Assembly: GCA_963723515.1 (NCBI GenBank)
Contig: CAVRQT010000002.1
Location: 416,001 to 480,000 of the forward strand
Length of the DNA: 64,000 bases
DNA from: Vulcanimicrobiota bacterium
GTDB lineage: Bacteria; Vulcanimicrobiota; Vulcanimicrobiia; Vulcanimicrobiales; Vulcanimicrobiaceae
Reading direction: 5' to 3'
A program made the position numbers and the translations under genes. Every line of letters starts with the position of its first letter. Within the stretch, counting starts at the first letter, position 1. This document shows, piece after piece, positions 16,802-61,597 of this stretch. The notes under the pieces were generated by a model. That model worked only from the letters and a program-made list of their open reading frames with translations, was not told the origin of the DNA and searched no databases.

Positions 16802-18679
16802 CTAGGAAGCAGCCGATATTCTTGAGCGCAGCATTCGGTAGTCGCCGCTGCGCACAGTGATGCCGCGCGCGTCAAACCACTCGAGCAACGGCACGGCATG
16901 CTTGCGCGACGTGCCGATCAGATCGCGGAATTCGGCCATCGTAATCTGCCGGCGTTCGTCGATCAGGCGCTCGAGCTCGCGGTTGATCTGCTGTATTTGG
17001 CTCCCACGATAGAGATCGTCGCCGACTTTGACAAGTGCGCCGGTAACCAGCAGCGTGTCGAAGGCGCGCGATAAGCCGGGAATGCGCGCTCCGCGCATCC
17101 GTTCGAGGACTGCACCTGCTGACGCGGGCTTGAACCGATCTTGTGAATCAATCGCCACCTCTTGTTCGAAGAAGGTACGTTGCTCGGCGCTCAATTGGGG
17201 CACGTGTTCGGTCGGAGCGTAGTAGCCGGCGCGATGCGCCACTTTGCCTTCCTCGGCAAACGCTGAGAGCAATCTCAATAGTAGCGGTTCAGCCATACCG
17301 AGCAAGCGCGAAAGGGCCAGCGATGTCATTCCCGTGCTCCACGGCTCGGCGCGCACGTGCGTTTGTAAGGCCGTCAAAACGTCTTGTAAGAATTTCTGCG
17401 CGTGAGTTGCTGCGACAAAGCCTTGCGGGCGGGACACTTGTATCACGTTGCCCTGTTCAACGAGCCGCTCCAGCGATAGCCGTATGACATCTTCTCGCAC
17501 GTTGACGCGAGCCGCAAGTTTTGCAGCGTCGATCGGCTCGACTCCTAGCGAATCGAGCACGGCTTGCGTTCGCTCGTCGATTTCCGCGCCCGCATCTGAT
17601 GGCTGGTCGGCGGAAAGCGACCCCAAGCCGCTGATCGTTCCGCCGCCAAGAAGCGTCTTCGGGGACATCCGCCGTACGACAAAATGCGTTCCGGGATACA
17701 CGATTGTGGGCCGCTGCAGATGCAGCGTTGCCGGCACGCTGGAACAATCCGTCGGAACTTCCTCAAGAATCAGTGAGCCGGCGGTTTCCGCCGAACCGAT
17801 GTATGCCTTGACGGCGATGCGGCGGCGTAGGAGCGGCAATGCTTCGGCGAGCGGTGCAAAGTATACGTTGAACGTCACGGCCGGTTCGAATTGCGGACTA
17901 GCAAGGACTTCACCACGTGCAATTTCGTTTACGGCGACGCTTGGAAGATTGGCCGCCACGCGAGCGCCGGCGGCAACGTATTTTTGGGGCGTGCCGAAAA
18001 CTTGCAAGCTTCTGATACGCGCTTTCTTGCCGCTCGGCTGAAGCATCAGCTGCTCGCCAACCCGCAGCGTTCCTTGCATTAACGTTCCGGTGACAATCGT
18101 GCCATGCCCCGGCAGCGCGAAGATACGATCGATCGGCAGATACGGCGGAGCTTGCACATTGCGCGGCGCTATCGACCGGAGTTCTGCCGCGATCAGGCCG
18201 CGCAACTCTTCGAGGCCGGCGCCGGTAACGGTGCTCGTCGCGACGATCGGCGCACCGTCGCTGATTGTCCCGTTCAACGATTCGCGGACTGTTTCGAGCG
18301 TCGAATCGACGACATCATCGGCGATCAAATCGATCTTCGTAACGACGAGGATCGTGCGCCGCACATTGAGATACCGCAGGATTGCAAGATGCTCGTATGT
18401 TTGCGGCTTCGGCGCCTTCGTTCGCCGCGACGACCAGCAAGAGCAACTCCATGCCGGCCGCGCCCGCGAGCATGTTATGCAGAAATCGTTCATGCCCGGG
18501 CACATCAACGATGCCGGCTTCTACCTGCTGCCGTCCAACCGCAGATGCGCAAAGCCGAGATCGAGCGTCATACCGCGCAGTTGCTCCTCGAGCCAGCGAT
18601 CAGGATTCGTTCCCGTCAGCGCTTGAACGAGCGCCGATTTTCCGTGGTCGACGTGGCCAGCGGTGCCGACTATGTGCAT
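16802..18679 (-). CDS. selB: Selenocysteine-specific elongation factor SelB; two frameshifts near 18525 and 18410
   Basis: [33 protein letters not shown]-terminal [15 protein letters not shown]; adjacent to selA. Confidence 0.92.
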
Positions 18680-18682
18680 GCG

Positions 18683-20023
18683 TTACTCTTGCGCGTGCAG
18701 CGCTCGTATGACGATATCGTCGTCATCCTCGGCGACCGTTCGCAAATCGAGCAAGAGGCGGCCGTTCTCTAGGCGCCCGATAATCGGCGGCGGCCATCTG
18801 CGCACCGCAGTTTCAATCTTGCCGTGCGGATCCGGTACGGCGATTGCTACGGATGGGATCGCTGTTTCCGGAAACGTTCCGCCTCCGACGTACGCCTCGC
18901 TCGAAACCGCCTCTACCAAAGGAAGATTCTCGGTGTAGCGCTGCGCCCGAAGCTGCAACTCTTCAACGGATCGTCCGAGCATCGCAAAGAGCGGAATCTC
19001 GCTCAGCCGCTCTTCGGAGGCATAGCATTGGAGCGTTGCCGCCAGCAACGCAAGTGTGACCTTGTCGACGCGCAGCGCGCGAATCAGCGGGTTCTCGCGT
19101 AAACGTGCCACATGCGCTCGCTTGCCAACAATGATTCCGGCTTGCGGTCCGCCGAGCAGTTTGTCGCCGGAAAACGCGGCTAGTTGGACTCCATCGCTGA
19201 CGGCTTCTTGCACTGTGCGTTCGTGCGGTAAACCAAACCGCTCAAAATTGAGCAGTGCACCGCTTCCCAGATCTTCCACGACCGGAATACCAACGCGGCG
19301 CCCTAAGGCTGCTAGTGCGCTGACGGTCACACGTTGCGTGAAGCCGCTCAACCGAAAGTTCGAAAGATGGGAACGAAAGATCAGCGCCGAGTTGGCGTTC
19401 AAGGCGCGCTCATAGTCGCGCAAATAGACCTTGTTCGCCGTCCCAACTTCAACGAGCCGGGCACCGCTTCGTGCAAACACATCCGGCAGCCGAAATTCGC
19501 CCCCGATTTCGATCAGCTCGTTGCGCGCTATGACGACATCGCGGTTGCGCGCAAACGTATCGAGAATCAGCACGACCGCCGCAGCACAGTTATTGACGAC
19601 GATCGCGTCCTGCGCGCCGGTCAACTCCCGCAGTACCGGCGCCAGGCGCGAGTACCGCGATCCGCGCCGGCCCTCGTTCAAGTCGTACTCGAGGTTTGTA
19701 TAGCCTGACGCGAGATCGGATGCGGCGCCGAGCGCAACGCGCGAGATCGGAGCGCGCCCCAGATTCGTGTGTAAGAGAACACCGGTGGCGTTGATGACGT
19801 CGCGCAGGGTCCGGCTTGCCGCTCGGTCGAGATCGCGCAGCACCGCTGCGCTCAAGGTTCGGTAATCGGAGGATGCGCCGTCAGCGCGTGCCCGATCCAG
19901 GACATCGGTTAGGACTCTCTTCACGTTTTCGTGACCGAGCGCCGGCTCATACGCCGCAATGCGGCGGTCAGAGAAAAAACGATGCACCGGCGGAATCCGC
20001 CGTCGTGCATCGCGATCGTTCAT
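18683..20023 (-). CDS. selA: L-seryl-tRNA(Sec) selenium transferase
   Basis: [50 protein letters not shown]. Confidence 0.95.
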
Positions 20024-60468: not shown

Positions 60469-60489
60469 AAGCGCAGCGACCGCTGCCTT
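60469..60489 (-). promoter_or_regulatory. SECIS-like hairpin
   Basis: AAG-GCAGC-GGUC-GCUGC-G-CUU beginning 11 nt 3' of the in-frame UGA. Confidence 0.7.
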
Positions 60490-60749
60490 TAGTGGACCGT
60501 TCAGCCTTGTGGCGGATTCCCCCAACCCGATTGAATGTACTTGCCGTCGACGACGATCGCCGGCACCGTCGGGTCGTCGCCGGTATATGAAAACATCTTT
60601 CGGCGCTCAGCCGGATCGTTCTGCGCATCGTGCACGACGTATCGTGTGCCCGCTGCATCGTAGTGTGCCATCGCGGCTTTACAATATGGACAAGCCGGAC
60701 TGATGTAGAGCTCTAGGGTGCTTCCGGCGGGAATCCGTTCAACGTCCAT
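60489..60749 (-). CDS. Glutaredoxin-like selenoprotein (CPYC, C-terminal G-U-T-V-H), Uxx-star-like
   Basis: CPYC and TVP glutaredoxin motifs; TGA 60503-60501 followed by ACG GTC CAC TAA and a SECIS-like hairpin; selA/selB in the window. Confidence 0.8.
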
Positions 60750-60763
60750 TGGTAATACCGATC

Positions 60764-61597
60764 ATGCCGCTCACCTTCGTACCCACTCCGCTTGGGAATC
60801 TACGCGACATCACGCTGCGGGCACTTGACACCTTGCGCGATTGCGACCTGCTCGTCGCCGAAGATACCCGCGTGGCGCGCAGGCTCCTTTCCGCTTTGAA
60901 GCTGCCCGCGAAGCCGCTGCGCAGCTATCGCGAACAGAACGCCGCGAGGGTGACGGAGAAGATCATCGACGCCGCGCACACGCAGCACGTTGCGGTCGTC
61001 TCAGACGCCGGAATGCCGGCAATTTCGGATCCCGGGGCCGCGTTGATCGCCGCTGCGCGTCGCGACGGAATCGCGATCGAGGTGTTGCCCGGGCCGAGCG
61101 CGGTGCTCAGCGCCGCCGTGCTGAGCGGTTTCGATGTGCGCGAGTTTGCATTCAGCGGATTTCTCCCACGCAAGAGCGGCGCTCGCCGAGCGGCCTTCGA
61201 GGCGCTTGCAAAAAACGGCGGTGTTACGACGGTGTGGTTTGAATCACCGCAACGAATCCGCGCAGCGCTGCGCGATCTTGATGCAGTCGATCCGAAACGG
61301 CGGTGCTTCGTTTTGCGCGAATACACGAAGATGCACGAACAGCAAATCGCCGGCACTTCGAGCGAGGTAGCCACGGCGCTTCCGGAACCCGTGCGTGGCG
61401 AGATTGCCCTCGTCGTTGAAGGCGGCGCAGCGAAGCAACCGCCCCCGATGGACTTCGAGCGCGCCGCGGATGCGCTTTTTGCGAAACGTGCGAGCGTCGC
61501 GGCGATTGCAAAGGCGTTGGCGCAGCGCGGATATGGCCCGCGGAGCGAAGTCTATAACCGCCTTCTGCAACGCAAAGAACGCGAGAGACAAAGGTGA
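60764..61597 (+). CDS. rsmI: 16S rRNA C1402 2'-O-methyltransferase
   Basis: VPTPLGNLRDITLRA, AEDTR, VSDAGMPAISDPG, FESPQR, REYTKMHE. Confidence 0.95.
   Translation: MPLTFVPTPLGNLRDITLRALDTLRDCDLLVAEDTRVARRLLSALKLPAKPLRSYREQNAARVTEKIIDAAHTQHVAVVSDAGMPAISDPGAALIAAARRDGIAIEVLPGPSAVLSAAVLSGFDVREFAFSGFLPRKSGARRAAFEALAKNGGVTTVWFESPQRIRAALRDLDAVDPKRRCFVLREYTKMHEQQIAGTSSEVATALPEPVRGEIALVVEGGAAKQPPPMDFERAADALFAKRASVAAIAKALAQRGYGPRSEVYNRLLQRKERERQR

Follow-up and report, generated by a model that had tools for sequence, protein, structure and literature searches.

In Escherichia coli fdhF the SECIS has an 11-nt spacing, and mammalian thioredoxin reductase carries its selenocysteine (Sec) in a C-terminal Gly-Cys-Sec-Gly arm. 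Among the bacterial proteins with which the locus described here is best compared, UXX-star families 1 and 2 and the HUGP/GUXX-star fusion are given as predicted selenoproteins in PMC13188914, in which true Sec glutaredoxins are described as having Sec in an N-terminal U/CxxC motif. For SaoC, a UGA-UAG pair followed by a 7-bp stem with a GGU loop has been described as a bacterial SECIS lying beyond the coding sequence (bioRxiv 10.1101/2022.07.06.499078). Both the Uxx-star family and the post-stop bacterial SECIS are thus known already; what is new here is an unannotated branch, not a new kind of system.

The window, a stretch of 64,000 nucleotides from a Vulcanimicrobiota bacterium (contig CAVRQT010000002.1, positions 416,001 to 480,000 of the forward strand), contains a small gene that is best explained, with a probability we put at about 0.88, as encoding an obligate selenoprotein of the Uxx-star group, in which an in-frame UGA would specify Sec and the SECIS would follow the stop codon. 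Its features are the following.

60489..60749, minus strand: full putative selenoprotein gene; 86-aa thioredoxin-fold, Grx/NrdH-like product, MDVE...CPYC...TVP...GWGNPPQG-U-TVH-stop
60749-60504, minus strand: ORF up to the first TGA, 82 codons from the ATG at 60749; TGA at 60503-60501
60681..60692, minus strand: CPYC active-site motif, residues 20-23; CPYC in 113 of 114 loci and CPYS in one, the search pattern having admitted these two motifs only
60561..60569, minus strand: T61-V62-P63, presumed cis-Pro loop, the cis assignment being taken from the fold
60501..60503, minus strand: in-frame UGA, predicted Sec83; Cys aligned in relatives
60489..60500, minus strand: codons of the Thr-Val-His tail, then TAA as true stop (60491-60489), ACG GTC CAC TAA
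60469..60489, minus strand: putative SECIS hairpin; upper stem 60486-60482 with 60477-60473, loop GGUC at 60481-60478, one base within the stop codon

The sequence agrees with the initial annotation in that an 82-aa ORF ends at TGA and is followed by ACG GTC CAC TAA; with TGA read as U, the translated end becomes ...GWGNPPQG-U-TVH*. The 86-aa protein matches Glutaredoxin (PF00462) in Pfam with an E value of 1.5e-12, and its best NCBIfam match is NF041212 Uxx-star (E 2.5e-15), for which it scores 56.5 bits where 66 would be needed; another four members of the branch reach 51.5-59.3. It shares with NF041212 proteins a small Grx-like fold, an N-terminal CPxC and a Gly-Sec/Cys just before the stop, and its Sec aligns with the Sec/Cys of passing members in an invariant column (alignment A4), bearing out the link to the C-terminal-Sec "Uxx-star" families drawn in the initial annotation. 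Whereas the family name, read literally, stands for two residues past Sec, the window protein has three and the sister clade four; since L035, L032 and L146, with three or four such residues, score above the cut-off, the model does not require two. The branch differs further in a GWGxPPxG loop before Sec and an N-terminal extension of 10-14 residues. The sister clade passes NF041212 with 71.1-76.8 bits, and in a tree of 75 columns, rooted at the midpoint and carrying no clade test, the branch (96/95) groups with it at a support of 84/91, a weak placement, though consistent with Uxx-star membership. Related models are NF041114, NF041211, NF047338 and NF045501; against UXX-star families 1, 2 and 3 and the HUGP fusion the protein scores 35.2, 26.6, 20.5 and 26.6 bits, with cut-offs of 72, 100, 97 and 325, respectively. 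Judged by these alignments, the protein is a homologous and presumably alike-working Uxx-star branch of Eremiobacterota that falls formally under the model threshold, and NF041212 misses this branch.

SaoC and KCU-star (NF033934) resemble the window protein in their near-terminal Sec and post-stop SECIS but are unrelated proteins with CU motifs; compared with them, the Uxx-star branch offers more than 100 natural variants of an uncoded hairpin. True Sec glutaredoxins differ in that their Sec belongs to the U/CxxC motif, whereas that of the window protein lies in the tail, and no C-terminal-Sec glutaredoxin was found in passages of PMC2398784. Our literature search found no account of the Eremiobacterota branch; the main family source, Haft and Tolstoy 2025, was outside that search and may describe it.

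The UGA codon and the hairpin in related loci

A close orthologue occurs in 12 of 41 related genomes, each ending G-U-T-V-H/Y-stop. A profile search of 301 genomes of the phylum gave 125 matches, all 125 with one in-frame TGA, although 56 of them come from one genus and many alignment rows represent close kin; within one family of soil bacteria, 123 of the 206 genomes sampled carry the gene. Genome loci were pooled with metagenome loci, drawn from the best 80 of 490 matches, and identical 60-nt segments were collapsed, giving 114 distinct loci. The Sec codon is TGA in every one of them, and also, judged by eye, in loci L188 and L193, which lie outside the search pattern. The codons that follow change almost exclusively synonymously, the Thr codon after Sec being ACG in 74 loci, ACC in 28, ACT in 10 and ACA in 2, and the tails read TVH (64), TVHD (39), TVY (6), TIH (4) and TIIPD (1). 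By contrast with the constant first TGA, the true stop, 3-5 codons further on, is TGA in 46 loci, TAG in 35 and TAA in 33. Such a pattern is what Sec read-through, as first proposed for this gene, would leave behind. Each of the unpublished genomes G022 and G272 accounts for a single row of the carrier counts, and G022 appears in alignments A1 and A3 as well; the likewise unpublished G020 and G036 figure in the tallies over 41 genomes and in the tree. No claim depends solely on these four, and their publication requires the depositors' permission.

In none of the homologues is the Sec site occupied by TAA or TAG. More distant relatives (30-37% identity) have Cys in the Sec column, and three of them, when tested, passed NF041212; the expectation of Cys orthologues thus held at that distance but not inside the branch, for which no Cys form was found among the best 120 of 187 database proteins, the 114 loci and the top 37 of 150 representatives. 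The prediction that gene callers would truncate the protein proved correct, the same best 120 of 187 database matches all stopping at the Gly that precedes the Sec site. Entries of the branch at NCBI and JGI, all truncated, are named "glutaredoxin", "glutathione S-transferase N-terminal domain" or "hypothetical", and HEX6717839.1 (Pyrinomonadaceae), which NCBI names Uxx-star and which is 59% identical over 71 aa, also ends at the Gly before the site. The protein is cut short in every database entry examined, an annotation that the present analysis corrects. One entry, P0140, was rejected as a garbled artefact.

The hairpin, AAG-GCAGC-GGUC-GCUGC-G-CUU, begins as initially described after an 11-nt spacer from the UGA, with 19 nt from the UGA to the loop, and all but one base of it lies past the stop codon, in keeping with the proposal that the SECIS would be almost wholly free of the coding region. 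It is the MFE fold of its 21-mer (-8.9 kcal/mol); compared with shuffles, it has a z of -1.8, 10 of 200 shuffles being equally stable, and longer regions of 44-104 nt fold no better than shuffles. An Rfam search returned two chance-level matches and no SECIS family. Taken singly, the window hairpin is weak evidence for a SECIS. Its geometry fits the bSECIS consensus given, with an MFE limit of -7.5 kcal/mol, in the legend of Fig. 2A of PMC13188914: the loop is GGUC, 5 bp are followed by 3 bp beyond a bulge, and the spacing is 19 nt. The 5-bp stem by itself reaches -6.9 kcal/mol, and the energy falls below the limit only with the bulged extension. An uninterrupted hairpin within these limits is present in 95 of the 114 loci.

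The comparison with ordinary stops is more telling. A stem of at least 5 pairs with a C-GGUC-G loop that begins 17-22 nt past the UGA occurs in 56 of 74 short-tail loci and after none of 310 ordinary TGA stops of the host genome; by a looser hairpin criterion the counts are 95 of 114 loci versus 14 of 310, and over the whole host genome the family loop-and-stem pattern follows 13 of 59,049 TGA triplets. Over an alignment of 44 loci, 85% of stem cells are paired, compared with 73% in shuffled and 33-48% in slid pairings, and double-sided changes number 24, versus 5.7 in shuffles, the scored structure having been drawn from those same sequences. Conservation among relatives extends to the upper stem, to the loop and to the loop-to-UGA distance, but not to the lower AAG/CUU pairs or to a spacer of exactly 11 nt, and the initial expectation of a conserved hairpin is upheld to that extent. 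On these sequence grounds, the post-stop hairpin is, in our reading, the SECIS, and Sec insertion in the family may be regarded as nearly certain.

In the sister clade, which has the longer tail, the loops are of the C-CGUGC-G type at +21 to +22. An AGUU-type loop, as in the host formate dehydrogenase hairpin (G000:C3 1002362), occurs in L049, L050, L051 and L137, so that at least three loop types appear functional in the lineage as judged from sequence. In the 46 loci in which the true stop is itself UGA (e.g., L018, L021 and L023), it lies 12-15 nt past the Sec UGA, and the hairpin starts only a few bases further on; a single SECIS here accompanies two UGAs that are apparently read differently. 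These double-UGA ends, together with the uncoded SECIS variants, make the spacing and loop rules of SelB directly testable.

Two further groups were encountered beside the branch. L027-L030, L032, L035, L037 and L038, from a second family of the same class, encode a different Uxx-star selenoprotein ending GFGGx-U-x-I/V-H-stop, with its own hairpin bearing a C-GUG-type loop; two that were tested pass NF041212. The Cys-form relatives (GxxGRGC; L024, L025, L026, L033, L034, L036, L039 and L040) form a separate clade, and several of them, by eye, run into a hypF-like N-terminus, which hints at a link to hydrogenase maturation.

Predicted fold and chemistry of the tail

With Cys in place of Sec, AlphaFold2 gives a Grx/NrdH fold at a pLDDT of 96.8. 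The initial annotation had envisaged an 86-aa product with a CxxC and a mobile Sec tail; length and motif stand, but the model shows an ordered tail (pLDDT 97) held by a beta-bridge, residues 61-62 and 83-84 being assigned to strand or bridge. When the same 19 sequences were remodeled minus the last four residues, the pLDDT was 95 and the assignment at 61-62 was lost, the T61-V62 beta-bridge appearing only in the full-length model. The cis-Pro loop binds substrate backbones in thioredoxin-fold proteins, according to PMC8405906. The tail is accordingly predicted to be docked on the presumed cis-Pro loop rather than mobile, a docking read from DSSP strings without coordinates and with Cys standing for Sec, and we infer from the model that Sec83 would sit in the substrate groove beside Cys20. 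The closest structures, 1h75 (NrdH), 3zij (BC3987) and 7c10 (cGrx1), match with Z of 9.2-9.6 and rmsd of 2.3-2.4 A over 68-69 residues; the NrdH and dithiol Grx structures differ from the window protein in sequence (13-23% identity), and their alignments stop at residue 80, with no counterpart of the Sec tail. No solved structure spanning the tail was found, residues beyond 80-81 being unaligned in 49 of the 50 chains listed.

The designation "glutaredoxin" holds for the fold but not in the sense of a glutathione-linked enzyme. Glutathione synthetase (gshB) was found in 0 of 41 genomes, and the protein is therefore probably not glutathione-dependent; gshF was not found in the 88%-complete host genome, nor was bshC in a search for host low-molecular-weight thiol genes, and the score against the Grx3 model TIGR02181 is 38.6 bits, below its cut-off of 90. 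Since gshB was not found in these genomes and trxB is present, the best guess is a Cys-to-Sec relay fed by thioredoxin reductase. In the predicted mechanism, SelB bound to the hairpin, with its G-rich loop about 20 nt past the UGA, would deliver Sec-tRNA, and the ribosome would then add Thr-Val-His and terminate. The product would act as a small thiol/selenol oxidoreductase. Its tail would run back against the cis-Pro loop, the edge at which proteins of this fold usually bind their substrates, and would thereby bring Sec83 beside Cys20. The host thioredoxin reductase system, rather than glutathione, would reduce the CPYC pair; by way of a Cys20-Sec83 selenenylsulfide, electrons would move on from CPYC to Sec83, and an oxidized target would then be attacked by the selenolate. 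We regard this relay chemistry as tentative, somewhat short of an even chance. More speculative still is the reading that the U-T-V-H tail occupies the glutathione/peptide groove, forming the Cys20-Sec83 selenenylsulfide, so that a tethered selenol may stand in for glutathione in bacteria seemingly without it, the natural variants of the gene then serving as a coding-free SECIS library in which one hairpin may serve a UGA read as Sec and then a UGA read as stop. If true, the tethered selenol would supply a mechanism for the whole Uxx-star group, for which no tested function was found. With 86 aa and a near-terminal Sec, the protein would be an easy model for Uxx-star function.

The arm of mammalian thioredoxin reductase offers a parallel in having a C-terminal Sec near a dithiol center and a possible electron relay. 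The window protein is, however, non-homologous to it, has neither a Cys adjoining Sec nor a flavin, and its tail is modeled as docked, not swinging.

The main rival to the relay is metal binding, in which Sec, together with Cys20/Cys23 and His86, would be a ligand for a metal or metalloid (Hg, As, Cu or Ni). Docking beside the CxxC is compatible with either role, a His or Tyr is retained three residues past Sec, some Cys homologues appear, by eye, to adjoin a hypF-like gene, and Sec in the UXX-star family may bind metal according to PMC13188914. On the other hand, CPYC and TVP are intact, the best fold matches are dithiol redoxins, and the 1.5-3 kb flanks of both clades contain no metal-resistance genes among the neighbors, which were named by eye; we therefore consider a metal-binding role unlikely, though worth bearing in mind beside the relay.

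Probable selenocysteine decoding in the host

The host genome is 88% complete in 4 contigs. Both selA and selB, said initially to be in the window, are there, selA intact but selB broken by two frameshifts.

18683..20023, minus strand: selA, Sec synthase; TIGR00474 at 507 bits, above cut-off; intact, trans-acting, 40 kb distant from the selenoprotein gene
16802..18680, minus strand: selB, Sec elongation factor; broken by a frameshift near 18525 and an opposite one near 18412, a TAG lying in between

The remaining genes of the pathway, selC and selD, sought in the light of the initial annotation, were both found in the genome: tRNA-Sec (selC) scores 69.4 bits and lies 13 kb before the window, and selD (G000:C2 780199-781126) has its own in-frame TGA within a CAGU motif and a frame change near its 3' end. 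The host formate dehydrogenase also has a TGA and a hairpin.

The state of selB might suggest that, in a family of genuine selenoproteins, this host has lost functional SelB and makes only the truncated form, and the frame change in selD points the same way. Against such a loss, the assembly itself is rich in indels: of 77 non-overlapping genes (at least 80% identity, from 22 close-relative loci) that are open in close relatives, 7 span more than one frame in the host assembly, one of the 7 resembling an antisense shadow. Those in more than one frame include argS, prfA and thyX, and gyrA (about 21050 in the window) is broken too. Because these genes are broken likewise, the selB frameshifts are probably assembly errors, and because essential genes are frameshifted in this indel-rich assembly, pseudogene calls in the host genome are unreliable. 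In addition, selB is open in the same-genus genome G001, and the host keeps selA, tRNA-Sec and three Sec codons. Loss of SelB is hence improbable, and Sec insertion in this organism remains highly likely, if a shade less so than in the family.

Among carriers, selA is present in 122 of 124 genomes, versus 15 of 20 among the first non-carriers listed, kin not being independent in these counts. Two fragmented carriers, G231 (200 contigs) and G265 (280 contigs), retain selD, without an in-frame TGA, together with an intact UGA and hairpin, and selA, selB and tRNA-Sec were not detected in them; an assembly gap is the likely cause, the alternative being a recent loss of Sec decoding.

That the TGA is an ordinary stop, ending an 82-aa NrdH-like redoxin, with the hairpin acting as a terminator or 3' stabilizer, is how every database calls the gene, and the truncated protein still folds in the model, while the window hairpin alone barely beats shuffles. 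This reading is very improbable in view of the constancy of TGA over 114 loci, set against a downstream stop that uses all three codons with mostly synonymous changes in between, and of the Cys aligned at the site in relatives; as to a terminator, a U-tract follows the hairpin in 0 of 114 loci, and a promoter and terminator scan called nothing. Decoding of the UGA as Trp or another residue by an alternative genetic code can hardly be entertained, as the one database entry with Trp at the site (P0125) is a gene-caller artefact in which the true UGA stop is likewise read as W and the frame runs on, 46 of the 114 loci use UGA as their true stop, 310 long host ORFs end in TGA, and relatives have Cys at the aligned position.

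Neighboring genes and gene starts

The gene lies back to back with a divergent neighbor.

60764..61597, plus strand: rsmI-like methyltransferase, from PF00590 and its position before metG and tatD; its start is 14 nt from the selenoprotein start

By eye, Eremiobacterota loci have the rsmI-like gene and metG upstream, and the sister clade is flanked by peptidase-like and rhodanese-like genes; no operon partner common to both clades was found in flanks of 1.5-3 kb, and these surroundings point to no particular substrate.

In 34 of the 74 short-tail loci (e.g., L015, L019, L020 and L088), the selenoprotein and the rsmI-like gene have their ATGs within a single common CATG palindrome, which stands 69 nt ahead of CPYC and leaves zero intergenic DNA, so that both promoters must sit within the opposite gene; leaderless transcripts at these starts are our guess. 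In the window (at positions 60749-60766) and in three close loci, the selenoprotein start is shifted by 16 nt, out of frame, and an 8-codon ORF lies over the start. In the sister clade L146-L193 (tail TVHD), an additional Cys stands two residues past the cis-Pro (TVPC), and the gene adjoins a small divergent Cys-rich ferredoxin-like gene, with a peptidase-like gene downstream.
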